Part shown: positions 2,788-43,383 of the stretch, in pieces | How positions within the stretch are numbered: the stretch's first letter is position 1 | Layout of the letters: each line of letters begins with the position of its first letter | Origin: an uncultured Pelolinea sp. | GTDB taxonomy: Bacteria > Chloroflexota > Anaerolineae > Anaerolineales > Anaerolineaceae | Direction of reading: 5' to 3' | NCBI GenBank assembly: GCA_964383575.1 | Contig: CAYLHI010000001.1 | Location: 18,442-82,441 of the forward strand | DNA: 64,000 nt | Position numbers and translations under genes: made by a program | Notes under the pieces: model-generated | The model's database searches: none | What the model was told of the DNA's origin: nothing | The model's input: only the letters and a program-made list of their open reading frames with translations

Positions 2788-3831
2788 ATGAAAAAAACGA
2801 TCAGTAGAATAAATTTAATATTGGTGGTTTTATTGGCAGCAGCCGCCTGCCAACGGACCCCGGCTCTTCCCGCAAAAACAAGCGAACCGGTTCCAGAACA
2901 GGAATCAGCACCTGTCGTAATCGCATCGGAAAACGCGGCGACTCTTAAACAAGTTTATTCCGCATCAGTAAGCACCGGTTACATCAGCGCGAAATGGGCG
3001 GAGGACAGCACAGCAGTATGGATTATGGATTCCGAAAGCGCCGCTCTGTATGACAGTACGAGCGGTGAGAGAACCGCCCAATTCGCTCCGGGAGAGGACG
3101 TCGCCGTGTATGACGTGTCACCGGACGGGAAAACTGTGGCATATTCCCAGGATGGGTTAGAAATCCACTTATTTAATGTTTCCGCCCAGGCGGATATCCT
3201 GAGTATCGTACCTGATTTCCCCTTTTCAAACGCCTTTTTCAACACCGACGGCACCCTGCTCGGAACGGATTCGCTGGATGACATCAAGATCGTCCTGTGG
3301 GACACAGCCAGCGGCAAGGAAATGGGCAGTTTGCGCGGGTTTGGGACCGCGGCTCCCGTTTACAGCGCGATGTTTGGTATGGATGGAAAAACACTGCTGT
3401 GGTTCTCACGTGGGACCGTTCAGCCGATGGACATTGCCACGCAGGAAATGGGACCAACGCTTTCGCATGAGGATTTCGTAACCGCGAGGCAGATTTCCCC
3501 GGATGGAAAGGTTATCGCTACCACCGCGGCTGCCACGATCGGCGGAGAATTCCAACCGGTGCTGACGCTGTGGGACGCGGACAGCGGGGAAATCCTGCGG
3601 CAGAACACCATTCCGAGTTATTTCAGTTCAATCGCATTTTCTCCGGACAGCGGCCTGCTGGCAGCAGGCACGGAGAATGGGGTACTGATCTTCACCGTAC
3701 CCCGTGGCGACGAGGTCTTCCGTTTTGACAGCGCGGAAGTGGTCGCCAGCATCGCTTTCTCACCGGACGGGGTCAAGCTGATCACCTGCGGAGATGAAGG
3801 AACAATAAACATCTATGCAGTGAACGAATAA
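2788..3831 (+). CDS. lipoprotein with WD40/PD40-like beta-propeller repeats
   Basis: Lipobox 'LLAAAAC'. Repeated 'SPDGK/SPDS/SPDG' blades: VSPDGKTVAYS, ISPDGKVIAT, AFSPDSGLLAAG, AFSPDGVKLITCG. Confidence 0.7.
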   Translation: MKKTISRINLILVVLLAAAACQRTPALPAKTSEPVPEQESAPVVIASENAATLKQVYSASVSTGYISAKWAEDSTAVWIMDSESAALYDSTSGERTAQFAPGEDVAVYDVSPDGKTVAYSQDGLEIHLFNVSAQADILSIVPDFPFSNAFFNTDGTLLGTDSLDDIKIVLWDTASGKEMGSLRGFGTAAPVYSAMFGMDGKTLLWFSRGTVQPMDIATQEMGPTLSHEDFVTARQISPDGKVIATTAAATIGGEFQPVLTLWDADSGEILRQNTIPSYFSSIAFSPDSGLLAAGTENGVLIFTVPRGDEVFRFDSAEVVASIAFSPDGVKLITCGDEGTINIYAVNE

Positions 3832-3850
3832 ACTATCTGCATATCATATT

Positions 3851-3879
3851 AAACGCGCTCCGGTTGGAGCGCGTTTTTT
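3851..3879. terminator. bidirectional rho-independent terminator between convergent genes
   Basis: AAACGCGCTCC-GGTT-GGAGCGCGTTT is a perfect 11-bp stem, flanked by A-run/T-run. It abuts the polB stop codon (3878..3880). Confidence 0.7.
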
Positions 3880-6160
3880 ATTGACAACACGGTTCAGGAT
3901 ACAGCGCAGGATCAAGATGAATGACCGGGGGCGGACGACGGCGGCGCCATGTGCGCAGGGGCAGCCTGAGCTGGCAGCCAAGGTCAGCGCGCACCCAGAT
4001 AAGGAGCGCTTCCTCATCCAGCCCAAAAGGCTGGAGCAGATTAGCGGCGGCGCGGAGGATAAGTTCCTGGTAGTGGTCTACATCGACAGCAGCCGGATCG
4101 GGGGGATAGGGCAGGTCCCAGGCGTGCACGCCGGCTCCGCCGCGGATAAAGATAAGGCGCACGCGCTGCCCAGGGTAGACGGACTTACCTGCCGCCTGGA
4201 GCTGCATAACAGCCCGCGCGCCGGGAGAAGGCACCCGATAGCCAGCGAGCTGCTTGCTGAGCTTCTTGCCGACAAGTAAATCCTCAAGGGGCACACGACC
4301 GGTGCGCAGAGCATGCAGCCGGCGGCGGAGGATATCCACCGCTTCAGGCACCTGCCGCTGGAGATCAGCTGGGCTTTGGGCGCGCGCCAGGCAGCGCAGC
4401 ATCTCACACTGAGCATCAGCCACAAAAGGCGCCGCGTCGCGCCGGCGCAGATCAATGCCGCGCGCTTTAACGCTGCCATCCTGAAAAACGCCAAAGTAAC
4501 GGTTGGGCACCGGCAGGCGGTCATCCACGCGCGAGGGGAGAAAAACCACCCAGCGGTAAACGCCGTCCAGCGAGATGGGCAGGGAGGTGCGGGCGGCAAT
4601 CTCTTCCAGGAGAGGCTGAAAGTCATCAGGTTCACGGCAGCCGTCCTTCTGCACCCATAAGCCATCCACGTACATATGCAATACGCGGAAACCCATTTCT
4701 TCAGCGGCTTCCTTGGCGCGCAGGAGCGCCTCGCGCCCCCAGGTGGTAACGGCCTCATGGGCTTCTATGCGCCCGAAGCGGGCGTTCTTGTAGCCGAGAT
4801 AGCCGAAACAGGTCACCAGAAGCCATTTATGGGCTGATGAGCGCGCTTTATCCTTGCGCCGGCGCGGATCCCACTTCGGCAGGCTGAGGGCGCGCTGTTT
4901 GAGCGCGATACGCTTTTCAAGGAGGGGTTTAAGGGTGAGTGGCACCAGTCCGGGGGGATGGTCAGAACTGCCCAGGCGGTCGGGGAAGGGCGTCTCCGGA
5001 GAGATGTTGCTGCGCACCATGATAGAAGGATACATGGAGACAAAATCAATCATCCCGACATCAAAATGCAGTCCAGTGATAGGCTGGTAAACAAGCCCAC
5101 CCTGGTCGAAACGGATCAGGTCGAGGGCGGTCTTGGGGCGCTCAACCTGCTGTTTACGCCAGGGGACAAGGATATCGTTCCGCAGAGCGGTGGTAATCTG
5201 CATAGAAGAAATGCCCGTACCGGGCGACACGCGCGCGGCAATCTGAATGGGGAGAGCAGTGACACGCGCGGATTCGAGCGCGCCTTCCAGATCATAGCTC
5301 TGCCACATCATCGCATTGCGGCAGTCAATATGGCAGCGCCCGTAGAGGAGGATCTGCTGACCGCGGTAGATAATCTGCCCGTAGGAAAAGTAGGTACCCG
5401 CTTTCTTGTGCAGCACACCGCGCCCCACTTCGCGATTGAGGGGGAGGGGCAGGTTGTGCTTTTTAGCAAGCGACAGCAGGAGCGGGAGGAGCCAGGTGTC
5501 GCCGCTGACAGTCAGCAGGAGATCAGGGTCAACCCGCCGCAGCAGGGCGCGCAGGTTGATCAGCAGGGGGCGCTCCGGCTGGAGGGAGAAGCGGTATTTA
5601 TGCCCATCGTGGCGGGCGATGAGTACCTTGGGCTGGGCATGGGCCGGATCGCAGTCCGGTTTGAGAGCAAGCACACGCAGGGGCGCGCCGAGGGGATCCA
5701 GATCCCAGGGGGAATCCAGCACACGCAGTTCCCGCACGGTACCCTCATCGTCCGCGCTGATATAGCAGCGTGCCAGGGGAAAGGTACCCCAACGGGCAGC
5801 GTGGCGCAGGGTGATATTCAGATCAGCATCATAATAATCCAGCCCAGGAAAGCGGCGAGCAATCCGCTTAAAGAGGCGCGGCTGACAGATGGGAGCACTC
5901 ATTTCCACTGCCAGCAGAGTGAGGGGCTGATCATGGAACAGATCACGCCGTTGAGCGCGGTAGAGGCGCAGTTTCTCAGGCTGTGCCCGCAGGAAGCTCT
6001 GCAGAGCACGCAGCTGCTCAGGGTCACCCGCCGCATAGAACGTAACCGGAAAATCCTGCCGCAGGCGGCAGCGCTCCCCGTCATCGCCGATCAGCCAGAG
6101 AACAACGCCCTCACGGTCATCTTCGTAAAGGTCGAGCAGCCAGCCAACACGGTCAGGCAT
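3878..6160 (-). CDS. family-B DNA polymerase, exonuclease motifs degenerate (760 aa)
   Basis: Motif A 'IDFVSMYPSI'; motif-B-like 'KWLLVTCFGYLGY'; motif-C position 'VLHMYVDGLWV'; thumb 'VKARGIDLRRRD'. Start taken at MPDRVGWLLDLYEDD (ATG 6160..6158), overlapping the upstream ORF stop by 8 nt. The 925-aa ORF in the track is an out-of-context extension. Confidence 0.85.
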   Translation of the reverse strand: MPDRVGWLLDLYEDDREGVVLWLIGDDGERCRLRQDFPVTFYAAGDPEQLRALQSFLRAQPEKLRLYRAQRRDLFHDQPLTLLAVEMSAPICQPRLFKRIARRFPGLDYYDADLNITLRHAARWGTFPLARCYISADDEGTVRELRVLDSPWDLDPLGAPLRVLALKPDCDPAHAQPKVLIARHDGHKYRFSLQPERPLLINLRALLRRVDPDLLLTVSGDTWLLPLLLSLAKKHNLPLPLNREVGRGVLHKKAGTYFSYGQIIYRGQQILLYGRCHIDCRNAMMWQSYDLEGALESARVTALPIQIAARVSPGTGISSMQITTALRNDILVPWRKQQVERPKTALDLIRFDQGGLVYQPITGLHFDVGMIDFVSMYPSIMVRSNISPETPFPDRLGSSDHPPGLVPLTLKPLLEKRIALKQRALSLPKWDPRRRKDKARSSAHKWLLVTCFGYLGYKNARFGRIEAHEAVTTWGREALLRAKEAAEEMGFRVLHMYVDGLWVQKDGCREPDDFQPLLEEIAARTSLPISLDGVYRWVVFLPSRVDDRLPVPNRYFGVFQDGSVKARGIDLRRRDAAPFVADAQCEMLRCLARAQSPADLQRQVPEAVDILRRRLHALRTGRVPLEDLLVGKKLSKQLAGYRVPSPGARAVMQLQAAGKSVYPGQRVRLIFIRGGAGVHAWDLPYPPDPAAVDVDHYQELILRAAANLLQPFGLDEEALLIWVRADLGCQLRLPLRTWRRRRPPPVIHLDPALYPEPCCQ

Positions 6161-6419
6161 CCAGGTCTCCGGTAAGCTCGGCCATCTGCTGGCGCAGGCG
6201 CAGGATCTCCTTATGCTGTTCAAGCAGCATGGAGAGTAGAAAAGTCTCCATGGGGAGGGCGTGGGCGGCATAAGCAGCCGCGGAGAGATGCTGGCGGGCA
6301 GAGGCAAACAAATCATCAAGGGCAAGCTGGTCACCCCGGCGCAGGGCACGGCGGAAGCGAGAAAAGGCCTCCTGCTCCTGAATGAAAGCCTGGGTAATAG
6401 AAGGCAAAGTGCGCCCCAT
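6153..6419 (-). CDS. small helical protein of unknown function (88 aa), middle gene of the polB cassette
   Basis: ORF sits 3 nt after the upstream stop and overlaps the polB start by 8 nt. Its composition looks helical. No motif recognised. Confidence 0.55.
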   Translation of the reverse strand: MGRTLPSITQAFIQEQEAFSRFRRALRRGDQLALDDLFASARQHLSAAAYAAHALPMETFLLSMLLEQHKEILRLRQQMAELTGDLDA

Positions 6420-6422
6420 GAA

Positions 6423-6968
6423 TCAGGCCTCCTCTTCCCACAGTGCCGGCATTTTAGGGGCAGGCAGCGCTTCCAGCTGCCAGGAACCGCCGGCAGCCGC
6501 CTGGAGGGCATCCGCCAGCACTCCTTTTTCCGCACACAACAGGGCTGGCAGCTTAGCACTGACCACCACGGGGGCAAACTGGCTGAGGCGCTTGAGGTGG
6601 AGGATGCAGCCCGCCAGCAGGCGCTGGCTTTCGGCAAGCCGGACATTATCATCATAGAACGCTGCCAACAGGTCGATCACCAGAGTAGGCAGACCATCAG
6701 CGGGGGTTTCCGCCAGCAGTGCCGCCATCTGGCAGCAGGTAAAAGCGCGGGAGAGATGAATGCGCGCAAGCGCGCCGGCCAGGTCAGACGTGCAACGCCG
6801 GACAGCGCGCGCCACCGGGTAGACATTAAAGCGGTTGCCGCCATCCAGCACGCGCAGTTCGCCAGCAGCCGACAGCCGTGCAGAAAGCTCAAGCATGAAC
6901 GCGCTGGCAGCGTGCGGGGCGGTGAGCACCAGCAAACGGTTGGATAAAGGGAAGGTCAATGCGTCCAT
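6423..6968 (-). CDS. SulA/ImuA-like RecA-fold protein lacking a P-loop (181 aa)
   Basis: RecA/KaiC-like layout. The Walker-A position reads 'LVLTAPHAASAF' (no GxxxxGK[ST]) and there is a Walker-B-like 'LPTLVIDLLAAFYDD'. 'IHLSRAFTCCQMAALLAE...LVIDLLA' parallels E. coli SulA 'MQISQLSPCHTVESMVRA...VVIGWLA' (recalled from memory). Confidence 0.55.
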   Translation of the reverse strand: MDALTFPLSNRLLVLTAPHAASAFMLELSARLSAAGELRVLDGGNRFNVYPVARAVRRCTSDLAGALARIHLSRAFTCCQMAALLAETPADGLPTLVIDLLAAFYDDNVRLAESQRLLAGCILHLKRLSQFAPVVVSAKLPALLCAEKGVLADALQAAAGGSWQLEALPAPKMPALWEEEA

Positions 6969-6994
6969 ACCCTAATATTAGAACATTTATTCTA
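6969..6994 (-). promoter_or_regulatory. candidate LexA (SOS) box within a leaderless-type promoter of the polB cassette
   Basis: Minus strand reads TAGAATAAATGTTCTA-ATAT-TAGGGT-ATG. The 16-bp box (6979..6994) is one mismatch from the palindrome TAGAAC-N4-GTTCTA. The -10-like TAATAT (6980..6975) lies 6 nt before the ATG. The -35 is weak (ATGATG). Confidence 0.5.
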
Positions 6995-7146
6995 TTTCAT
7001 CATCCCCCACGCGCATCTGAAGTGTTTAAAAGAGGGGTGAAAAGCAGGTGAGCCAGATTTTGGGGTGCTGGATAGTGCTATCGGCAGCGGCCAGCGGATG
7101 CTTCCAACTTAGAAGTGAATTCAGAAATAATTAAATCGCGAATTTA

Positions 7147-8349
7147 TTATTCACCTAATTCTTGTGTGGTCTCATTAAATGTTGCACAAGGCTGGTTGCC
7201 GCAAGCAAGGTACTCCAATCTTTTTTGCACATCTTGTACTAAATGACCAGGCTCTACCCACAATCCGAATTCCGCTCCGGTGGCTTGATTGATCTTGTCT
7301 GGCTGCGCGATGTTGATAGTTACAAAATTAGAAATAATCACCAGAGATAATAATAAACCCAGCACCCATTTCTTATCAGAAAAAGCGATACCGATCAAGA
7401 TCATCCAGAAAGGAATTGTTGGTATCAAATACGCGGGTTCCGTTGGCAGCCGAAAATAAAATAATTCCATGCCTACGATTAACCCAATGGATAAAATACT
7501 AATCTGAAACACCTTGTTATTAATCTTTAACTTGCCTAAAATGCCTAATCGAACTAATCCCCACATGAGGATTAAAAAAGCCGGAGGGCTCCAAAAATAG
7601 ATGCTCTTATATATAAACCGACCTGTCCTTAGATATAAACTCCAAAATTCTTCCCCGCCAATAGAAGGGAAGAAAATATGTGTTTTCCATTCGGCAAAAG
7701 TGATCGGCGGTAAATAAAAAATTAAAGACAAAATTAGCATAATCGCACCAGACAGGAAAATGCGCCTTCTATTTTGCACCTCAAACATAAAAGCCCACAG
7801 CAGCACCAAACCTGCTACTAAAGCTGTTGTCAGCCGGCTGCCAACACCCATTGCCATGCTTATACCAGCGGTAACAAATTTTCCTTCCAAGAGCATCCAG
7901 AACCCTATCATTGTAAAACCCAGTGCAAACAAGTAATCCATGGTGCAGGTGGAATTGACCAGATAATAGGGATGCACCATCATGATAACAGCTAAAAATC
8001 GATAATTAGGCACATCGTATCGCTTACATATATATATAAATATTGCTAAAATCAGCAACGACATGCACAAACTGCCAAAATTGGTCAGAAAACTGCCGCC
8101 GATAATATTTAAGAAAAAAGTGATGGTTTCATAAACAAAGAATCCAGGCACGCGGGAGGGAACATAATCAAGTGTCTCGATAAAATTTTCACCTACCCAT
8201 AACACGTTATAAGAATCATAATCGCTGCCATAGCCGAGAAAAATGAAAGGAAAATAAATAAAAAAAGCTAAGAGCAAGATGTGTAAATCTTTAGATTGTT
8301 TTATGGATTTAATTGCTTTTTTGATTTGCAAACAGACCACCTTATCCAA
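7147..8349 (-). CDS. polytopic membrane protein, possible GT-C (ArnT/PMT-like) glycosyltransferase
   Basis: 400 aa with more than 10 hydrophobic segments, strongly AT-rich. Family assignment rests on overall architecture only. Confidence 0.4.
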   Translation of the reverse strand: MDKVVCLQIKKAIKSIKQSKDLHILLLAFFIYFPFIFLGYGSDYDSYNVLWVGENFIETLDYVPSRVPGFFVYETITFFLNIIGGSFLTNFGSLCMSLLILAIFIYICKRYDVPNYRFLAVIMMVHPYYLVNSTCTMDYLFALGFTMIGFWMLLEGKFVTAGISMAMGVGSRLTTALVAGLVLLWAFMFEVQNRRRIFLSGAIMLILSLIFYLPPITFAEWKTHIFFPSIGGEEFWSLYLRTGRFIYKSIYFWSPPAFLILMWGLVRLGILGKLKINNKVFQISILSIGLIVGMELFYFRLPTEPAYLIPTIPFWMILIGIAFSDKKWVLGLLLSLVIISNFVTINIAQPDKINQATGAEFGLWVEPGHLVQDVQKRLEYLACGNQPCATFNETTQELGE

Positions 8350-8691
8350 GAATAATTATTAGTTATGCAGTTATGTGACCGCCAAATGATTACGCAACAA
8401 TTTTTTTGTAAAATTGATCACAAATCCTTCCAATTTATTCTATCATTTGTCAGCCAGTCTCCATTCTCAAAAATAATATGCCGTATTCCCATTCCTCAAT
8501 AACCTCCATCAAATTAGCTTTAATCCACCGCAAGCATTGCTGCTCATTTGCTAAATTTAAAAAAATACATGGATGAGCAAAATAATTTGGGGGACTTGCT
8601 AATTTAGCAACCATTTCTTTTACCTTCGAGAGTAGTTTGAATTGTCAGGAAACACAGCAGGGATTTTCCAATTTTTTTTCCAGAATACCCC

Positions 8692-8719
8692 TTGACAAAA
8701 TTGATAAAACTTATAAAAT
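8692..8719 (+). promoter_or_regulatory. sigma-70-type promoter of the dtxR-feoA-feoB operon
   Basis: TTGACA (8692..8697), a 16-nt spacer, then TAAAAT (8714..8719), about 50 nt upstream of the ATG at 8770. Confidence 0.5.
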
Positions 8720-8769
8720 AAGGTGTGCCTAAATATTTTAATGATTTTATATAAGGCACTCCTAATAAT

Positions 8770-9753
8770 ATGAACTCGCAAAAATTAGAGCTTTCAAGCA
8801 GCATGCAGATGTACCTGGTCAAGATTAAACGTATGGAAAGTGAGTTTAATCCAGTACCTCTTTCCCTTCTCGCAGAATCTCTGCAGATTTCTCCGGTATC
8901 CGCTAATGAGATGTGCCGGAAACTAGATGAGATGGAGCTGATCCGGTACCAACCTTACAAAGGAGCCAGTTTATCTGATGAAGGGAATCTGCAAGCTGAA
9001 AAAATCTTAAGAAATCATCGGCTCTGGGAAGTTTTTCTGGTTGAAAATCTACATTTTGATTACCTGACAGCTCATCAAATGGCGGATGATCTGGAGCACG
9101 CAACCTCCAAAGAATTGGCTGATCAACTGGATGAATTTCTCGGCTGCCCAAAATTCAACCCGGAGGGAAAAGAGATACCTGCGGGAGACAAAGCCGGCCG
9201 CAATATACAAACGATGAAACTATCGGAAATGGGGGTTGGATCCGAAGGATATTATTTCAGTGATGAACTTGATGAAAATATAGCTGAATTTTTTTCAGAT
9301 GTAAATCTCAGAAAAGGAGAGCGGCTTAAGGTGCTTGGAAAAACCTCCAGCCAAATGATCATTCAAGCCGGAGATGAATTTATTCATCTCAGCAGAGAGA
9401 TTGCTGAAAAAATCGCAACTGCAAAGTTAGAAACCAACACATCCAATGACAGCAGAGACAGCGCTGTTAATAAAACCAACAAGGAGAAGGCTATGCAAGA
9501 AAAGATAATTAAAAAGAAAACATTGAAGGATTTAAAAATAGGCCAAACAGGTGTGGTTGTCCGTGTTAAAGGAAAGGGATCCATCAAACAGCGAATGATG
9601 GATATGGGACTGGTGCCCGGAAGCGAGGTCAAAGTAATCCGCGTTGCTCCATTGGGAGACCCGATTGAAATCATGATAAAGGGATATAACCTCTCGTTGC
9701 GTAAAAGCGAAGCCCAAGATATTGAGATTGAAACCAGCGGGGAGAATGAATGA
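8770..9753 (+). CDS. DtxR/MntR-family metal-dependent repressor with C-terminal FeoA (SH3-like) domain
   Basis: N-terminus 'MQMYLVKIKRM...LAESLQISPVSANEMCRKLDEMELIRYQPYKGASLSDEGNLQAEKILRNHRLWEVFLVENL' is the DtxR HTH plus dimerisation region. C-terminus 'LKIGQTGVVVRVKGKGSIKQRMMDMGLVPGSEVKVIRVAPLGDPIEI' is FeoA-like. Confidence 0.85.
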   Translation: MNSQKLELSSSMQMYLVKIKRMESEFNPVPLSLLAESLQISPVSANEMCRKLDEMELIRYQPYKGASLSDEGNLQAEKILRNHRLWEVFLVENLHFDYLTAHQMADDLEHATSKELADQLDEFLGCPKFNPEGKEIPAGDKAGRNIQTMKLSEMGVGSEGYYFSDELDENIAEFFSDVNLRKGERLKVLGKTSSQMIIQAGDEFIHLSREIAEKIATAKLETNTSNDSRDSAVNKTNKEKAMQEKIIKKKTLKDLKIGQTGVVVRVKGKGSIKQRMMDMGLVPGSEVKVIRVAPLGDPIEIMIKGYNLSLRKSEAQDIEIETSGENE

Positions 9754-9974
9754 TGCCGCTGAGTATGGCTCCAGCAGGCACAACGCTTAAGATTGTAGGA
9801 TTCAGGGGCGGCTTTGGCATGCGCAGGCGCCTGGCTGATCTAGGAATGAATATCGGCATGGAAATATCCGTTGTATCAACCTACCAACGCGGACCATTGG
9901 TGGTCTTGATTAAAGGATCAAGGTTCGCAATCGGACGGGGAATCGCCCATCATGTTTTTGTTAAACCAAAATAA
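9750..9974 (+). CDS. feoA: ferrous iron transport protein A
   Basis: 74 aa with 'LKIVGFRGGFGMRRRLADLGMNIGMEISVV...GPLVVLIKGSRFAIGRGIA'. ATGA overlap with the upstream gene. Confidence 0.85.
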   Translation: MMPLSMAPAGTTLKIVGFRGGFGMRRRLADLGMNIGMEISVVSTYQRGPLVVLIKGSRFAIGRGIAHHVFVKPK

Positions 9975-10002
9975 GTAATCAAACAAAAAGGAGTAATTTT
10001 CG

Positions 10003-10497
10003 ATGAAAGAATTTACAGTCGCACTTGCGGGAAACCCCAATTGCGGAAAAAGTACAATTTTTAATGTTCTCACCGGATCTCACCAGCATGTTGGAAATTG
10101 GCCGGGAAAAACTGTGGAAAAAAAGGAAGGGCATTTCACTCATAATGGTAAGAAGGTGAAGGTTGTGGATCTTCCGGGAACGTACAGTCTCTCAGCTTTT
10201 TCAATGGAAGAAATAATTGCCAGGGACTATATCCTTGATGAGCGGCCGGATATAGTCGTTGCGGTTGTGGATTCAACTAATCTTGAACGCAACTTATATC
10301 TGGCTGTACAACTGCTTGAACTTGGCGCGCGAGTGATTATAGATCTCAATATGAGTGATCTAGCAAAGTCTAACCGCATCGAAATTGACACCGATAAACT
10401 GGCCTTTGCGCTTCAATCCGAAATCATACAAACGATTGGGAGCAAAGGAGACGGTGTTGAGCAATTGAAAGATTTAATATCAACATATTATCAATAA
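10003..10497 (+). CDS. feoB: FeoB G-domain (stand-alone GTPase part of a split FeoB)
   Basis: 'ALAGNPNCGKSTIFNVLTG' (G1), 'GNWPGKTVEKKEG' and 'DLPGTYSL' (G3). Ends at the G-domain/helical-domain boundary. Confidence 0.85.
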   Translation: MKEFTVALAGNPNCGKSTIFNVLTGSHQHVGNWPGKTVEKKEGHFTHNGKKVKVVDLPGTYSLSAFSMEEIIARDYILDERPDIVVAVVDSTNLERNLYLAVQLLELGARVIIDLNMSDLAKSNRIEIDTDKLAFALQSEIIQTIGSKGDGVEQLKDLISTYYQ

Positions 10498-10507
10498 ATG
10501 GAGAGGA

Positions 10508-12238
10508 ATGATGATTACACAAACAATTGAGAAACGCAATTTCTCAATCCAATACGGCAAAGCAATAGAGGAAGAAATCAGCAAACTGCAAAGCGAAATC
10601 AAAAAAAACGAGCGCTTAACCTCGCGTTTTGAAAGCCGCTGGCTGGCAATCAAATTGATTGAAAGCGATCCAAACATCTCGGAAAAAATAACAGCAATAG
10701 AAGGCGGAGGCGAGGTGATTGAATTGTCAAAAAAATCCGTCGAGAAGCTTGAAAAAAGATTTTCCGATGATCTGGGTTCAATTTTTGCAGATAAACGGTA
10801 TGGATGGATTAACGGCCTGGTTAAAGAAATAGTTGACAAGAGCCAAGCTGACCGTATCTCGATGAGCGATCAGATCGATAAAATCGTCACGAACCGAATC
10901 CTTGGAATCCCGATTTTTCTAGCAATGATGTGGGCTGTCTTCAAATTCACAACCGATGGTGCCGGACCTTTTTTGGATTGGGTAGATGGTGTTATCGGCG
11001 GACCGATCACCAATTGGGTGGAGAGTTTAATCAACCTTGTAGATTTAGGCGGGACGTGGGTGGAGAGCCTTTTTATTGACGGCATAATCGCGGGCGTAGG
11101 CGGCGTGATGGTTTTTGTTCCCGTTATGCTTTCGCTATATTTTGCGCTGGCAATACTGGAGGATTCGGGTTATTTGGCCCGTGCCGCATTTGTTATGGAC
11201 CGCCTCATGCACAGTCTCGGACTGCATGGAAAAAGCTTTATATGTATGATTATTGGGTTTGGCTGCACTGTGCCGGCCGTTTATGCAACCCGCACACTTG
11301 AAAATGAAAAGGATAGGTTATTAACTGGACTGCTGGTTCCTTTTATGAGCTGCGGTGCACGTTTGCCAGTGTACGTGCTATTCGCATCCATCTTTTTCCC
11401 GCAGAACAGCAATACCGTCATTTTTCTACTGTATTTAACGGGCATTGTAGTAGCCATGATACTTGGTGTAATGTTGAGCGGAACACTTTTCAAAAACCGC
11501 GAACGCTCTCCTTTTGTTTTGGAACTTCCCCCATACCGCATGCCAACCCTGCGAAATATTTGGTTCTTGATGTGGGAGAGAACTTCTGCATTTGTGCACA
11601 AAGCTTTCTCATTTATTATGATTACCAGCATTATCATATGGCTTTTAATTGCCATTCCGGTGAATGGGGGCGCATTTGCTGAATCCGAAGTGGAAGACAG
11701 CAGTTTCGCTTACGTAAGCCGGGTAATTGCGCCGGTTTTCCAGCCCACTGGCTTCGCCAGCTGGCAGAACACGGGAGCCCTGGTGACCGGTTTCGTTGCC
11801 AAAGAAGTGGTTGTTGGGACGATGGGACAAATTTTCAAAGTTGAAGAGGCAGAAGAAGAAATGGCCACAACATCATTTTTTCAAGACCTTATCGAAGTTG
11901 TTTCCAGCTTTTTCTCCACAGTGGTGGATACCATAAAATCAATTCCGCTGATTATCGGTATAGACCTTTTTGAAAGTGAAGACGAAGATACAGGTACTGA
12001 ACTGATGGCTGTTGTTAAAGATCATTTCGAAGAAGTCAGCGGCGGCCACGGTGCACTGGCCAGCGTTGCTTTTATGGTGTTTATACTACTCTACACTCCC
12101 TGCATGGTTGCTGTTGCAGCCCAGCTGCAGGAATTTGGCGTAAAATGGGCAATCTTTGGAGCACTATTGGAATTGGTTGTAGCATATATCGCTTCTGTAA
12201 TCGTTTTCCAGGGAGGGTTGCTGTTAGGATTGGGGTAA
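10508..12238 (+). CDS. feoB: FeoB helical (GDI) plus membrane permease part of a split FeoB
   Basis: 'RWLAIKLIESDPNI' and 'ADKRYGWINGLVKEIV', followed by gate-motif-type TM segments. Own GGAGAGG RBS. Different reading frame from the G-domain ORF. Confidence 0.85.
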   Translation: MMITQTIEKRNFSIQYGKAIEEEISKLQSEIKKNERLTSRFESRWLAIKLIESDPNISEKITAIEGGGEVIELSKKSVEKLEKRFSDDLGSIFADKRYGWINGLVKEIVDKSQADRISMSDQIDKIVTNRILGIPIFLAMMWAVFKFTTDGAGPFLDWVDGVIGGPITNWVESLINLVDLGGTWVESLFIDGIIAGVGGVMVFVPVMLSLYFALAILEDSGYLARAAFVMDRLMHSLGLHGKSFICMIIGFGCTVPAVYATRTLENEKDRLLTGLLVPFMSCGARLPVYVLFASIFFPQNSNTVIFLLYLTGIVVAMILGVMLSGTLFKNRERSPFVLELPPYRMPTLRNIWFLMWERTSAFVHKAFSFIMITSIIIWLLIAIPVNGGAFAESEVEDSSFAYVSRVIAPVFQPTGFASWQNTGALVTGFVAKEVVVGTMGQIFKVEEAEEEMATTSFFQDLIEVVSSFFSTVVDTIKSIPLIIGIDLFESEDEDTGTELMAVVKDHFEEVSGGHGALASVAFMVFILLYTPCMVAVAAQLQEFGVKWAIFGALLELVVAYIASVIVFQGGLLLGLG

Positions 12239-12425
12239 GCTGTGTGCATTATCGCATGAGTGCTCCTTTGGCGTAGTCATCTGAGGAGCATTCATCTTAT
12301 CGCAACTTACCCTTCTTTGACTTTTAAAGTTGCATCTAAGAAAGCGTCTGTCAAGGTTTTTCGAATAAATAAACTCCTTTTTAAGGTTGTTTACAAGGCA
12401 CTCTTTAACCGATGCATCTAACCGT

Positions 12426-12452
12426 GCTCAACCATGGGCTGAGATCCCAATC
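12426..12452. repeat. 27-bp exact direct repeat, copy 1 (intergenic)
   Basis: GCTCAACCATGGGCTGAGATCCCAATC is identical to 14199..14225, which is coding sequence of the LuxR-type gene. Confidence 0.95.
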
Positions 12453-12489
12453 ATAATCACCATTTGAATCAAGGAATTGCCCATATATA

Positions 12490-12518
12490 TGAAAAACTCC
12501 TGATACAAAATCAGGAGT
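12490..12518 (-). terminator. rho-independent terminator of the radical SAM gene
   Basis: ACTCCTGAT-ACAAA-ATCAGGAGT is a 9-bp stem. On the minus strand it is followed by TTTTTC. Confidence 0.6.
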
Positions 12519-12601
12519 ATAGATTCTGATAGCCATACGATTTTGCTATCTTGTATTCACAATTTCATTTTATGAACAGAATTCTCTTTTAAAAGGAATG
12601 G

Positions 12602-14095
12602 CTACCCTGATACGTGCTGTTCACTGACCTTTCGGAAATGGAAGCCGTATATCGAGTACGTGATCGCCAATGGAAACAGATCTGGTTTCTTGAACAGAGT
12701 CCAGAAAAATAACTTCCAGTAATGCTTGCGTTCTTTCCCGAATATGCCAAGCTGAAAAATCGACCGTATTAATGCGATGAAGTTGCGCCAGATCATGTCG
12801 AAATTAATGTGCGGCTTTATTTTTTTCCGGTGATATTCCTGCAGGAGAATTTTAACGCGCTGGTAATATAATTCGGGAGAATAGATCTGCCGGATCAATT
12901 TACGATAGCGCTCTTTTAACTTGTCAATATTCATACGCGTGATGATATTAGTTGAGCCATCCACGTTGTCACCGGAAATATTCTTGATCAGCCGACCGGC
13001 TTTGCGCATGCGCTCATAGAGCATAGTACCGATTGGGGCCTGCAAGATACCCACCATTGCAGTTACAATACCGCTCTTTTGAATGAAGTCGAGCAGATGC
13101 TGGAATGTGGAAGGAGTATCATGGTCAAATCCCACAATAAAGCCGCCCTGAACCTGCATGCCTGCCCTCTGGATTTTTCTGACATCTACTAACATATCCC
13201 TGTTCAGATTCTGGCGCTTGCTGCATTCTTTAAGGTTGCTCTCATCCGGGGTTTCGATACCGATGAAGACCTGGTTAAAGCCTGCTTTGACCATCAATTC
13301 CATCAATTCAGAATCATCCGCCAGGTTAATTGATGCTTCTGTGTGAAAGTAAATGCCGGATTTATCCTTACGCCATTCGATCAGTGCGGGAAGAAGGTCC
13401 TTCTTCAGCACCTGTTTATTACCAATGAAGTTATCATCCACAAAGAATATGCCGCTGCGCCAGCCGCTTTTATACAACATATCTAGTTCTGTAACTATTT
13501 GTGCAGATGTTTTCACGCGCACACGGCGGCCGAGCAGAGCAGTTATATTGCAGAAATCACAGTTGAAGGGGCAGCCGCGCGAGTACTGCATGGCCATAGT
13601 CGCATAGTCATTAAAATTAATCAGATTCCACATTGGCGGCGGGGTTTTGTGCATATCCGCATATTTATCAGTAATATATTTTTTTTGGGGCCGTTCGGCG
13701 CCTAGATCTTTGAGAAATTCCACCAGTGTGATCTCGGCTTCATTGAGGACAAAATGATCCACGCCCTTAAACCCCTCAGATTCAGTAGTAAAGAGTGGGC
13801 CGCCGGCAACAACTTTTACGCCGATTTCATTGCAGCGGCGGATCACTTCTTTGGCTGATTCACGCTGGACGGTCATTGCGGAAATAAAAATAAAATCCGC
13901 CCATGCCAGATCCCTATCTTTTAACCGCTGACAATTCATATCGACCAGCTTCCTTTCCCATTCCGCCGGCAGCATGCTTGCAATTGTCAGCAAACCCAGC
14001 GGCGGGGAGGAGGCTTTCTTATGAATAAACTTCAATGCGTATTTGAAACTCCAGAATGTATCTGGAAATTCAGGATATATCAGTAATATTTTCAT
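12602..14095 (-). CDS. B12-binding-domain radical SAM protein (with DUF4070-like C-terminus)
   Basis: N-terminal cobalamin-binding-like 'MKILLIYPEFPDTFWSF...PPLGLLTIASMLP'. Radical SAM cluster 'YSRGCPFNCDFCN' (CxxxCxxC). Confidence 0.85.
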   Translation of the reverse strand: MKILLIYPEFPDTFWSFKYALKFIHKKASSPPLGLLTIASMLPAEWERKLVDMNCQRLKDRDLAWADFIFISAMTVQRESAKEVIRRCNEIGVKVVAGGPLFTTESEGFKGVDHFVLNEAEITLVEFLKDLGAERPQKKYITDKYADMHKTPPPMWNLINFNDYATMAMQYSRGCPFNCDFCNITALLGRRVRVKTSAQIVTELDMLYKSGWRSGIFFVDDNFIGNKQVLKKDLLPALIEWRKDKSGIYFHTEASINLADDSELMELMVKAGFNQVFIGIETPDESNLKECSKRQNLNRDMLVDVRKIQRAGMQVQGGFIVGFDHDTPSTFQHLLDFIQKSGIVTAMVGILQAPIGTMLYERMRKAGRLIKNISGDNVDGSTNIITRMNIDKLKERYRKLIRQIYSPELYYQRVKILLQEYHRKKIKPHINFDMIWRNFIALIRSIFQLGIFGKERKHYWKLFFWTLFKKPDLFPLAITYSIYGFHFRKVSEQHVSG

Positions 14096-14171
14096 AATTT
14101 ATTCACCATCCTTTAACATAACACAAAACATAAGTGATAGTTGTCTTGAATTCAAGTGTTATTCGCTACCT

Positions 14172-14600
14172 TCATTTCCAGATAGGAGACCATTCGCCGC
14201 TCAACCATGGGCTGAGATCCCAATCGGCGAGCAGCCGGCACAGCTCGCGGCGCGAGGAAAGATTGAATTTACGCAGGATATGGCGGACATGGGTCTTAAC
14301 CGTTTCCGGCGAAACCACCAGCTTAGCTGCAATCTGGCGCCCGGTCAGATCGGCACACACAAGAGCAGCCACCTGCTTCTCGCGTGGGGAGAGCGCGTCC
14401 CAACTGCGATGGGCGCGGTCCATCTGGCAGCGGTTCTTGACCGCCTGATCCAGCAGGATAAGGATCATTTCATCCGGCTGATGCCCTTCACGCACGGATA
14501 GGTCCTGTACCGAACGCAGCAGATCATCATCAGCCCTATCGGATATACGACTTATGTCTGCGCGCTCAATTACTTCCTGAAGCTGCTGCCAGAGTGTCAT
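14172..14600 (-). CDS. LuxR/GerE-family HTH transcriptional regulator (no receiver domain)
   Basis: 'LSPREKQVAALVCADLTGRQIAAKLVVSPETVKTHVRHILRKFNLSSRRELCRLL'. GC-rich compared with the adjacent 7-kb block. Confidence 0.85.
   Translation of the reverse strand: MTLWQQLQEVIERADISRISDRADDDLLRSVQDLSVREGHQPDEMILILLDQAVKNRCQMDRAHRSWDALSPREKQVAALVCADLTGRQIAAKLVVSPETVKTHVRHILRKFNLSSRRELCRLLADWDLSPWLSGEWSPIWK
14199..14225. repeat. 27-bp exact direct repeat, copy 2 (inside the LuxR-type CDS, encodes DWDLSPWLS)
   Basis: Identical to 12426..12452. Confidence 0.95.
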
Positions 14601-14635
14601 GCAGTCATTATATAGAATTTATGTTCTATTGTCAA
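14601..14635 (-). promoter_or_regulatory. consensus leaderless promoter with SOS-like palindrome filling the spacer
   Basis: Minus strand reads TTGACA-ATAGAACATAAATTCTA-TATAAT-GACTGC-ATG. It has a perfect -35 and -10 with a 17-nt spacer. The ATG is 6 nt after the -10. The spacer carries TAGAACATAAATTCTA (14628..14613). Confidence 0.65.
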
Positions 14636-42018: not shown

Positions 42019-43383
42019 TTATTTCTTCAAATGTTCAAGGAATTTTTTTATCCTGGTTTCATATCCTTCATCCGATGGTTGAAAGAACTTCTTCCCCTGC
42101 ACAGAATCTGGCAGGTACTGCTGCTCGGTGAAGTGCCCCGCGTAATCATGCGGATATTTGTATCCTTTTCCATGCCCGAACCCTTTGGCATCCCGATTGG
42201 CGTCCATCAGGTGGATCGGAACTGGCTGGGCGCCTTCTTCTTCAATCAATTTGGCTGCCTTAAAATAACCCAGAGCTGAATTCGATTTTGGCGCTGTGGC
42301 AAGATAGAGGGTCGCTTCTACGATAGGGTAAATACCTTCCGGCAAACCCACATATTCAAAGGCAGAAGCAGCAGCTGACGCTACCTGGAGTGCCTGCGGG
42401 TCCGCCAGTCCAATGTCCTCACCAGCAAGGATCAGCAAACGGCGGAGGATGAAGCGCAGGTCTTCCCCTGCTTTGATCATTTTAGCCAGCCAGTAGAGCG
42501 CCGCATCCGGGTCTGAGCCGCGTACCGATTTTATGAAAGCAGAAATTGTATCGTAATGCTCGTCCATATTCTTGTCATAGCGGATGGCCCGCCGCTGGAT
42601 GGAATCCTGTGCAATTTGCAGATCTATGATAACCACACCCGATGGGTCCGGTTCGGTTGATTCAACCGCCAGTTCCAATGCATTTAACAAACTCCGCGCA
42701 TCACCATTTGCCATATTGACAAGATGTGCCTTTGCTTCATCACCTGCCTTGATCTTCTTTTTCCCATAACCCCGATCTGCATCCGCCAGCGCCCGGTCAA
42801 AGATAATCGATAACTGCTCATTACTAAGCGGCTTAAGGTTAAAGATGCGGGAACGGGAGACTAACGCTGGTATGACATCAAAATATGGATTCTGTGTGGT
42901 CGCGCCAATGAGAATAATGAGCCCAGATTCAATGCTTGGCAGCAGTGCGTCCTGCTGGGCACGGTTCCAACGGTGGACTTCATCCACAAAAAGGATCGTG
43001 CGTTTATTATACAAACGCCGGCGGTCACGGGCTTCTGCAATCACCGCACGGAGTTCGCTTTTACCTGCCATTACTGCAGACATGGTCGCGAAATACGATC
43101 GGCTGTAATTTGCAATCAAGCGCGCCAGAGTGGTCTTTCCAGAACCGGGAGGCCCACATAAAATGATTGAGGAGAATAACCGGTCAGCTTTCACCGCCCG
43201 CCGCAGCAAACGCCCTTCACCAATGATCTCCTCCTGCCCGATGAATTCTTCCAACGTCCGCGGCCGCATGCGGGCTGCCAGCGGCGCTTCCGTCTTCATC
43301 CGCTCATCCATGGCATGGTCAAATAAATCCATACGGTCCTTGCCTTTCCTCCAGCCGATTTGTTTCATAGAACGCTTGTCCAA
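42019..43383 (-). CDS. rarA: replication-associated recombination protein A (AAA+ ATPase)
   Basis: 'PLAARMRPRTLEEFIGQ', 'GPPGSGKTTLARLIA' and 'FVDEVHRWNRAQQD'. The likelier start is MDLFDH (43332). Confidence 0.9.
   Translation of the reverse strand: MDKRSMKQIGWRKGKDRMDLFDHAMDERMKTEAPLAARMRPRTLEEFIGQEEIIGEGRLLRRAVKADRLFSSIILCGPPGSGKTTLARLIANYSRSYFATMSAVMAGKSELRAVIAEARDRRRLYNKRTILFVDEVHRWNRAQQDALLPSIESGLIILIGATTQNPYFDVIPALVSRSRIFNLKPLSNEQLSIIFDRALADADRGYGKKKIKAGDEAKAHLVNMANGDARSLLNALELAVESTEPDPSGVVIIDLQIAQDSIQRRAIRYDKNMDEHYDTISAFIKSVRGSDPDAALYWLAKMIKAGEDLRFILRRLLILAGEDIGLADPQALQVASAAASAFEYVGLPEGIYPIVEATLYLATAPKSNSALGYFKAAKLIEEEGAQPVPIHLMDANRDAKGFGHGKGYKYPHDYAGHFTEQQYLPDSVQGKKFFQPSDEGYETRIKKFLEHLKK

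Follow-up and report, generated by a model that had tools for sequence, protein, structure and literature searches.

What does a family-B DNA polymerase do when its gene is packed together with two small genes behind a palindrome that resembles an SOS operator? This question is raised by positions 3878-6994 of a 64,000-nucleotide (nt) stretch of DNA from an uncultured Pelolinea sp. (hereafter the window), where three such genes lie on the minus strand. An initial annotation of this DNA proposed a damage-inducible mutagenesis cassette, or mutasome, of a kind that it did not recognize as a described system. Here we find it highly probable that the locus belongs to the bacterial PolB2 mutasome operons, group 1a (iRadA-PPB2-PolB2), and that it acts by the mechanism set out below. 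The trio is not undescribed: the iRadA-PPB2-PolB2 operon was noted by Makarova, Krupovic, and Koonin in 2014 (PMC4104785) and modeled by Timinskas, Timinskas, and Venclovas in 2025 (PMC11791011), so the window adds no new kind of system. We assign the locus to this known type because the testable features that define PolB2 mutasome operons are found in it. The mutasome idea itself matches what both papers predict for the trio and is supported by a conserved upstream box, while the lineage given for gene 1 and the ImuB-like role given for gene 2 did not survive. The operon is considered archaeal in origin, with one transfer to bacteria, and in bacteria it occurs solely in the order iRadA-PPB2-PolB2 (PMC11791011). 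The data set of that work already covers Anaerolineae, Pelolinea among them. A 2026 survey of bacterial polymerases describes the exonuclease of group G2/PolB2 as inactivated and gives the prediction that these polymerases form a mutasome with two partner proteins.

Operon architecture and conservation

The three genes of the operon and the features at its 3' end are as follows, with lengths in amino acids (aa).

6423..6968, minus strand: gene 1, iRadA, 181 aa (from the list of open reading frames and the sequence)
6153..6419, minus strand: gene 2, PPB2, 88 aa, with a GGAGG Shine-Dalgarno sequence in front, starting 3 nt past the iRadA stop
3878..6160, minus strand: gene 3, PolB2, 760 aa, with its ATG at 6160 and its stop at 3878
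3851..3876, no strand assigned: G+C-rich hairpin of 11 bp directly 3' of the PolB2 stop, with an RNA fold of -21.2 kcal/mol (z = -5.7)
2788..3831, plus strand: WD40 gene, convergent with the operon

The tight packing of the three reading frames is as first recorded. Genes 1 and 2 are separated by a 3-nt gap (6420-6422), and genes 2 and 3 overlap by 8 nt (6153-6160, ATGCCTGA). Shine-Dalgarno sequences precede the second gene (GGAGG) and the third (GGAG), and the three genes are translationally coupled. The start of PolB2 was placed at 6160 (MPDRVGW), where 55 orthologs align, although the mechanical reading frame reaches 6655. The hairpin past the last stop, which had been taken as a shared terminator, is also present at 3851-3876. 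A terminator scan called it on the plus strand, where the T-run lies, and the tail on the operon strand is merely UUUAAUAU. Since a proper T-run is found on the plus strand only, we consider the hairpin a bidirectional terminator, common to the operon and the convergent WD40 gene.

Relatives of iRadA were collected from one genome per species, which gave 251 relatives, and the best 80 loci were analyzed (numbered with the prefix L). These best 80 are all from Anaerolineae, among them Pelolinea, Leptolinea, and Bellilinea-like metagenome-assembled genomes (MAGs), and they include Leptolinea tardivitalis (L044) and Leptolinea sp. HRD-7. Co-occurrence of the three genes, a check that had been suggested together with the mutasome idea, was found at most of them, with all three genes in the order iRadA-PPB2-PolB2 at 64 of the 80. 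Eleven loci have the iRadA-PPB2 pair and no PolB2 within 6 kb (L042, L047, L050, L052, L056, L061, L062, L064, L065, L066, and L070). At two more (L008 and L009), an orphan iRadA homolog stands behind a strong promoter with the box described below, and PPB2 and PolB2 are not detectable. Because loci without an adjacent polymerase retain iRadA, with or without PPB2, the two accessory proteins may also function apart from an adjacent polymerase. At L065, the pair is followed by genes that, judged from their translations, are mtnA-like, kinase, and adenosylhomocysteinase-like. The iRadA homolog of L008 ends in QQMELF, and the genes downstream of it look unrelated.

The iRadA and PPB2 proteins

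Pfam and NCBIfam searches of iRadA and PPB2 returned nothing usable, so the two small proteins were identified through literature, motif, and fold tests. The initial annotation had likened gene 1 to SulA and ImuA. We generated an AlphaFold2 (AF2) model of iRadA from an alignment of 29 homologs, which has a predicted local distance difference test (pLDDT) of 85.5 and a predicted template modeling score (pTM) of 0.82. In a Foldseek search of the PDB, the top 50 matches of this model are all RAD51, DMC1, RadA, or RAD51 paralogs (E ~1e-6, TMq up to 0.71). The protein resembles the RadA/Rad51 ATPase core only, without the N-terminal domain. Its Walker A position reads LTAPHAASAF, as had been noticed from the sequence, and both the alignment and the model confirm this; APHAASAF stands in place of GxxxxGK[ST], in the modeled loop that joins the first strand to the first helix. 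Based on this model, the 181-aa protein is predicted to be a catalytically inactive member of the archaeo-eukaryotic RadA/Rad51 lineage. The P-loop-less recombinase fold proposed earlier was thus retained, and homology to SulA or ImuA, which do not appear among the top Foldseek matches, was not. Near the C-terminus, MPALW (173-177) occupies the position of the beta-clamp motif, QMELW or QLVLW, of other Chloroflexota iRadA proteins.

We identify the 88-aa protein as PPB2 ("partner of PolB2," arCOG07300 family). Its N-terminal arm is MGRTLPSIT, and the first four residues are invariant among the 22 homologs compared. MGRT is the N-terminal arm motif that defines PPB2, a family of approximately 90-aa proteins with three helices (PMC11791011). 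There are at least 3552 homologs, and PF26485 is precomputed on all 120 of those listed. The AF2 monomer has a free N-terminal arm followed by helices at residues 8-28, 31-51, and 57-87, with a pLDDT of 65. The proposal that this small helical protein substitutes for ImuB does not agree with the published PPB2 models, which give it a role like that of UmuD' in Pol V, and no Y-family similarity was seen for PPB2 in Pfam, NCBIfam, or the AF2 model.

A 1.34-Mb Chloroflexia MAG contig, which is also L014, encodes P0106, a predicted 248-aa fusion of iRadA and PPB2. The iRadA region of this fusion diverges C-terminally, and the PPB2 part is complete and still begins with MGRTLPSIT. Fusions of this kind are reported in PMC11791011, and P0106, as a predicted natural fusion, agrees with a physical interaction of the two proteins.

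The PolB2 polymerase

Gene 3 matches Pfam PF00136 at 3e-25 and NCBIfam NF004416 ("type B DNA polymerase") with 391 bits, which is under the cut-off. Its closest solved structure is an archaeal PolB (5mdn, 1.6e-44), and E. coli Pol II (3k57) is a marginal match (E = 3.8e-4). The view of this protein as a PolB with a dead exonuclease and recognizable polymerase motifs is well founded. Compared with 5mdn, the exonuclease site has been lost, with Exo I changed from FDIE to LKPD and Exo II from NSNGFD to VSGDTW. Motif A (DFVSMYPS, at 372) and motif B (KWLLVTCFGYLGY, at 445) are intact, and motif C is present as YVD (497-499) rather than DTD. YVD is invariant in the alignment of 55 orthologs, as are the motif A Asp, motif B, and the second Asp of motif C. 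The data file of PMC11791011 tabulates YVD for Chloroflexota PolB2 and labels the operons "1a (iRadA-PPB2-PolB2)."

A polymerase that lacks the first motif C Asp in all 55 orthologs, and whose exonuclease site is gone, could serve in regulation or replication restart rather than in translesion synthesis, as part of a complex built on a catalytically crippled polymerase and possibly acting at stalled forks or origins. Such roles were considered by Makarova et al. (PMC4104785), in keeping with an older reading of these polymerases as "inactivated," and the 11 iRadA-PPB2 pairs without PolB2 within 6 kb and the two orphan iRadA genes would also fit them. However, Sulfolobus PolB2 has the same substitution, as IID, and is an active extender needed for targeted mutagenesis (PMC11791011). 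Likewise, a working active site would be expected to keep the motif A Asp, motif B, and the second motif C Asp, and all three are invariant. We consider a nonpolymerase role very unlikely and favor PolB2 as the extending polymerase of a mutasome.

Relative to 5mdn, PolB2 has a conserved 9-residue insertion, KTALDLIRF (343-351), which directly precedes D352. In the published description, iRadA is bound by a PolB2 loop with a RadA-oligomerization-like beta-alpha motif, after which comes a conserved D(K/R) (PMC11791011), and the insertion, as a candidate for this loop, and D352 sit where that work places these two features. D352 is conserved in 54 of the 55 orthologs; the residue after it is mostly Q, or else L or M, with K/R in only 4 of 55. 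At the C-terminus, QLRLPL (730-735) is a candidate beta-clamp motif, and by pattern match QLxLP[LMI] is conserved in the Pelolinea clade. The QLxLxL pattern is that of a beta-clamp-binding hexamer. A beta-clamp motif at the C-terminus of either PolB2 or iRadA occurs in a fraction of the published systems (PMC11791011).

A putative SOS box at the operon promoter

Two overlapping features lie directly upstream of iRadA.

6979..6994, no strand assigned: putative SOS (LexA, Cheo-type) box TAGAAC-ATTT-ATTCTA, matching 11 of the 12 positions of TAGAAC-N4-GTTCTA and overlapping the operon -10 region
6975-6980, minus strand: inferred -10 hexamer TAATAT (element 6969..6980), followed by 6 nt (TAGGGT) and then ATG, read from the sequence

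The near-palindrome was originally described as ending 10 nt before the first ATG, and this is its position, with a spacer at 6969-6978. Its parent motif, GAAC-N4-GTTC, is also the LexA motif of Dehalococcoides. In Gram-positive bacteria the same motif is the established LexA site (PMC3323433). A scan of the regions upstream of orthologous operons had been recommended with the annotation, and we carried it out for 79 loci, counting a box where at least 10 of the 12 positions of TAGAAC-N4-GTTCTA matched no more than 150 nt upstream of iRadA. A box is present at 51 of the 79 loci, compared with 49 of 5274 control windows (0.9%). In L001-L005, which are the closest loci, the box keeps an identical distance of 26 nt from the ATG, and across loci the arrangement is frequently TTGACA-box-TATAAT.

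In L047 (12061) and L061 (11207), the same box also lies in the recA promoter, between -35 and -10. It is found again directly upstream of a radical-SAM gene of approximately 400 aa in L046 (9477-9492) and L074 (2585-2600), the product of which has a C-terminal HhH motif and is of the "DNA modification/repair radical SAM" type. The boxes at recA and at the radical-SAM/HhH gene are consistent with a wider putative SOS regulon in Anaerolineae. It is clearly conservation across loci, and not the statistics of the window, that sets the box at the operon beyond chance. Since the box is conserved across loci, precedes recA, and equals the Gram-positive LexA motif, SOS control through LexA is the best-supported reading of how the operon is predicted to be regulated.

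The -10-like hexamer, the 6 nt, and the ATG are kept in an alignment of 28 regions upstream of iRadA, and the arrangement recurs at the GerE gene described in the next section. Because this geometry is conserved, it suggests that the first gene of each unit, iRadA and GerE, is transcribed without a leader. Upstream of the iRadA ATG, no Shine-Dalgarno sequence stands at the correct spacing. A sigma-70 consensus scan called no promoter upstream of iRadA, where the -35 is weak.

A third box-like site is located elsewhere in the window.

43368-43383, no strand assigned: TAGAACGCTTGTCCAA, 10 of 12 positions, directly after TATAAT and approximately 40 nt upstream of the likely rarA/mgsA ATG

The gene behind it, on the minus strand at 42019..~43330, encodes a rarA/mgsA AAA+ ATPase. 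The site may mark an additional SOS gene or may be a chance match.

The GerE-type neighbor and two promoter classes

A further box lies at the promoter of a regulatory gene upstream of the operon, and a separate conserved element stands between this gene and iRadA.

14172..14600, minus strand: GerE/LuxR-type helix-turn-helix (HTH) regulator, 142 aa, Pfam GerE 2e-16
14613..14628, no strand assigned: second putative SOS box, the only other 11/12 match of the window, inside the GerE promoter TTGACA-aTAGAACATAAATTCTA-TATAAT-6 nt-ATG
7034..7056, minus strand: upstream element CTGGCTCACC-N5-TTCACCCC, the local form of CTGGYTCACCC-N4-GGTTAMCC

At 35 of the 80 loci, the gene immediately upstream of iRadA is a GerE homolog in the same orientation, and tblastx comparison gives the synteny recO - NifU-like - GerE - iRadA - PPB2 - PolB2 in L003, L005, L006, and L007. 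From this gene order, the GerE gene is best described as the predicted ancestral upstream neighbor of the operon, displaced in the window by an insertion. Each of the 34 GerE genes that adjoin iRadA within 1.5 kb has its own box, with GAAC/GTTC perfect in 29-34 of the 34. The GerE promoter carries the sole box of the unit at 17 of 79 loci, and at 33 loci there is a box and no adjacent GerE gene. In Supplemental Table S1 of PMC11791011, GerE is the seventh commonest domain near polB2 (131 cases, with 108 for LexA), without discussion in the text. Neither a box-carrying GerE neighbor nor an SOS box overlapping the promoter is discussed in the literature on the system. We propose that the regulator and the operon may be functionally linked.

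With a box at every adjacent GerE gene, the palindrome might be the operator of an autoregulating GerE protein that also controls the PolB2 operon, rather than of LexA, and GerE would then be the damage-response regulator of these genes in Anaerolineae. Autoregulation would indeed place a box in the promoter of all 34 adjacent GerE genes, and the GerE gene is a conserved neighbor of the operon; approximately 0.9 Mb of Anaerolineae sequence also contains no lexA, though this sample is too small to inform the question. However, the motif is identical to the LexA (Cheo) box GAAC-N4-GTTC, and it sits between -35 and -10, a position typical of a repressor site. It also precedes recA and the repair radical-SAM gene, and 33 loci have the box without an adjacent GerE gene. 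An operator for GerE is therefore unlikely in our view, and we retain LexA as the probable ligand of the box.

The promoters of iRadA fall into two classes. In the first, found at 24 loci, there is a consensus TTGAC -35, and neither an adjacent GerE gene nor TCACCC occurs at any of them. The second class, to which the window belongs, combines a weak -35 (GGGATTGT-like) with the element CTGGYTCACCC-N4-GGTTAMCC, located approximately 65-90 nt upstream of the iRadA ATG. This element is present in the window and in L001-L007, L014, L042, L050, L052, L062-L066, and L070. TCACCC is enriched 8-fold upstream of iRadA and occurs at 29 loci, and at 23 of these a GerE gene adjoins iRadA. Expressed the other way, it is found at 23 of 34 loci with GerE versus 6 of 45 without (odds ratio 13.6, Fisher p 1e-6, calculated without phylogeny correction). 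The element at 7034-7056 is a possible activator site, and we hypothesize that the second class resembles an activator-dependent promoter.

Taken one step further, these patterns would allow a two-tier SOS circuit, in which LexA controls the GerE regulator and the regulator in turn acts on CTGGYTCACCC-N4-GGTTAMCC at the weak-(-35), probably leaderless iRadA promoter. The idea stems from the 17 loci at which the GerE promoter has the only box; in the window, both promoters are boxed and the regulator has moved 7 kb away. We offer this circuit tentatively, as something that could hold but that we would not expect to. If it is true, the mutagenic polymerase would need both LexA cleavage and a build-up of the activator, a delay or AND gate similar in purpose to the late induction of umuDC.

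Two other ideas about this region were discarded. A TCCCC...GGGA inverted repeat upstream of iRadA was dropped as a general regulatory hairpin: in L006 and L007 it is a hairpin with a T-run that ends the upstream GerE gene, and in the window its arms are approximately 28 nt apart and do not fit. We also rejected a split extracytoplasmic function (ECF) sigma factor, with PPB2 as the sigma-2-like and GerE as the sigma-4-like half, since PPB2 is archaeal in origin and its likeness to sigma-2 amounts to three helices.

Proposed mechanism

The most likely course of events is modeled on Sulfolobus genetics and the published AlphaFold models. DNA damage would lead to RecA-stimulated cleavage of LexA, which would free the promoter and give an mRNA that is probably leaderless. 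PolB2, iRadA, and PPB2 would then assemble in a 1:1:3 ratio. In the published models, which have the composition PolB2 : iRadA : PPB2x3, PPB2 is a trimer with an N-terminal arm beside the polymerase active site (PMC11791011). Here, iRadA would dock on the RadA-oligomerization-like loop of PolB2 (approximately 336-351), and one of the MGRT arms of PPB2 would enter beside the active site and the DNA. The complex would be held on the beta clamp, with QLRLPL (730-735) of PolB2 as the most plausible contact. Mismatched or lesion-distorted primer ends would be extended without proofreading, giving damage tolerance with mutations as the cost. In the Sulfolobales, DNA damage induces PolB2 (Dpo2) together with its two partner genes, and targeted mutagenesis depends on Dpo2 (cited in PMC11791011).

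Several observations weigh against the assignment of the locus to an SOS-controlled mutasome of this type. Within the proteins, the clamp-motif position of iRadA is without its Q, the D(K/R) motif of PolB2 reads D-Q, and the monomer model of PPB2 is of low confidence. Within the promoter, one half-site of the box is mismatched (ATTC). In the window, GAAC-N4-GTTC with no more than one mismatch has 19 matches where 19.8 are expected, and the 16-mer with no more than two mismatches has 3 where 1.1 are expected, a number that 7 of 100 shuffles reach. With E. coli LexA as the tblastn query, neither the window nor any of the 80 loci yielded a lexA gene, so the argument from a lexA gene next door, as made in the papers, does not apply here. 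Finally, the literature searched contains no experiment on any bacterial PolB2 operon, and bacterial PolB2 mutasomes have so far been predicted computationally.

Comparison with known systems

The window locus resembles the published PolB2 mutasome operons in nearly every respect compared. It has the same three families in the bacterial order, the MGRT arm, a RadA core without Walker A, an inactivated exonuclease site, YVD where DxD would stand, and, as a candidate, a C-terminal motif of the beta-clamp type. The differences are in details only: the window has D-Q, the better candidate clamp motif is on PolB2 rather than on iRadA, and the operon is without an adjacent lexA, SRAP, or DUF72 gene.

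The ImuA-ImuB-DnaE2 cassette, on which the initial annotation had drawn, is also a set of three genes under LexA control that combines a Walker-less RecA-superfamily protein with a nonproofreading polymerase, and it likely serves the same role in damage-induced mutagenesis. However, the polymerase of the window is of family B and not C, the 88-aa PPB2 stands where there would be an inactive Y-family adaptor, and the recombinase-like subunit is of the RadA/Rad51 rather than the RecA/ImuA lineage. The resemblance is one of analogy and not homology of systems.

E. coli Pol V (UmuD'2C-RecA) is similar to the PolB2 system on the basis of the published models. According to these models, in both systems a recombinase-family protein is bound via an oligomerization-like motif, the N-terminal arm of a small oligomeric subunit lies near the active site, and there is a clamp tether and SOS control. 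Unlike the PolB2 system, Pol V has a Y-family catalytic subunit, its UmuD' dimer is activated by self-cleavage, and its RecA is an active recombinase from a filament rather than a dedicated inactive paralog. E. coli Pol II (PolB, group G1) is of family B, is SOS-inducible, and has a C-terminal clamp motif, but it is a single subunit with an active DEDDy exonuclease and a canonical DTD, features that the window PolB2 lacks. Eukaryotic Pol zeta (Rev3-Rev7x2-Pol31-Pol32) is likewise a multisubunit family-B extender with an inactive exonuclease and a response to damage, though its accessory subunits are unrelated and it is eukaryotic.

What the comparison of loci adds to the published picture is modest and consists of the conserved box, the box-controlled GerE-type neighbor, and the two promoter classes. 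These nonetheless provide handles on the system, namely the operator TAGAAC-N4-GTTCTA overlapping the promoter in about two thirds of Anaerolineae operons, a candidate dedicated GerE-type regulator, and two carriers that are in culture, Leptolinea tardivitalis and Pelolinea submarina. Should the operon prove to be SOS-induced and mutagenic, a large bacterial class that is abundant in the environment would be employing a family-B polymerase of archaeal descent for induced mutagenesis, and PolB2 would fill the role that Pol V or ImuABC has elsewhere.

Base composition and an insertion upstream of the operon

No other 3-kb stretch of the window is as rich in G+C as the operon, which has 61.8% versus 47% and a G+C content at third codon positions (GC3) of 0.66-0.70 and which abuts a compositional break at approximately 7000. 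This composition could point to the cargo of a mobile element or defense island with a family-B polymerase of its own, in the manner of pipolins and casposons. However, no integrase, terminal repeat, or tRNA target was evident beside the operon, and synteny in L003, L005, L006, and L007 extends to its neighbors, both upstream (recO, NifU-like, and GerE) and downstream (WD40 and other genes). The polymerase is also of the PolB2/PolB3 type, which is neither protein-primed nor primer-independent. The G+C excess is common to all 12 related loci examined, where the operon is 6-22 points richer than its flanks, and we take it as a property of the operon across the class. For the same reason, recent horizontal transfer into this genome was rejected as the source of the excess. 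On the strength of the synteny, we reject mobile cargo as an explanation, with at most a residual chance that it is correct, and keep the reading as a PolB2 mutasome operon.

The break at approximately 7000 is attributable not to the operon but to material inserted upstream of it. Compared with the synteny of L003, L005, L006, and L007, the window has a block of approximately 7.1 kb (~7000-14170) of low G+C content (33-45%) between the GerE gene and iRadA. The block encodes a 400-aa membrane protein, a DtxR-FeoA fusion, FeoA, FeoB, and a B12-binding radical-SAM/DUF4070 protein, and this AT-rich insertion of Feo and membrane-protein genes accounts for the sharp change in composition. Within it, FeoB is in two plus-strand reading frames 10 nt apart, a 164-aa G-domain (10003..10497) and a 576-aa membrane part (10508..12238), an arrangement that may reflect a naturally split gene, a frameshift, or an in-frame stop codon.

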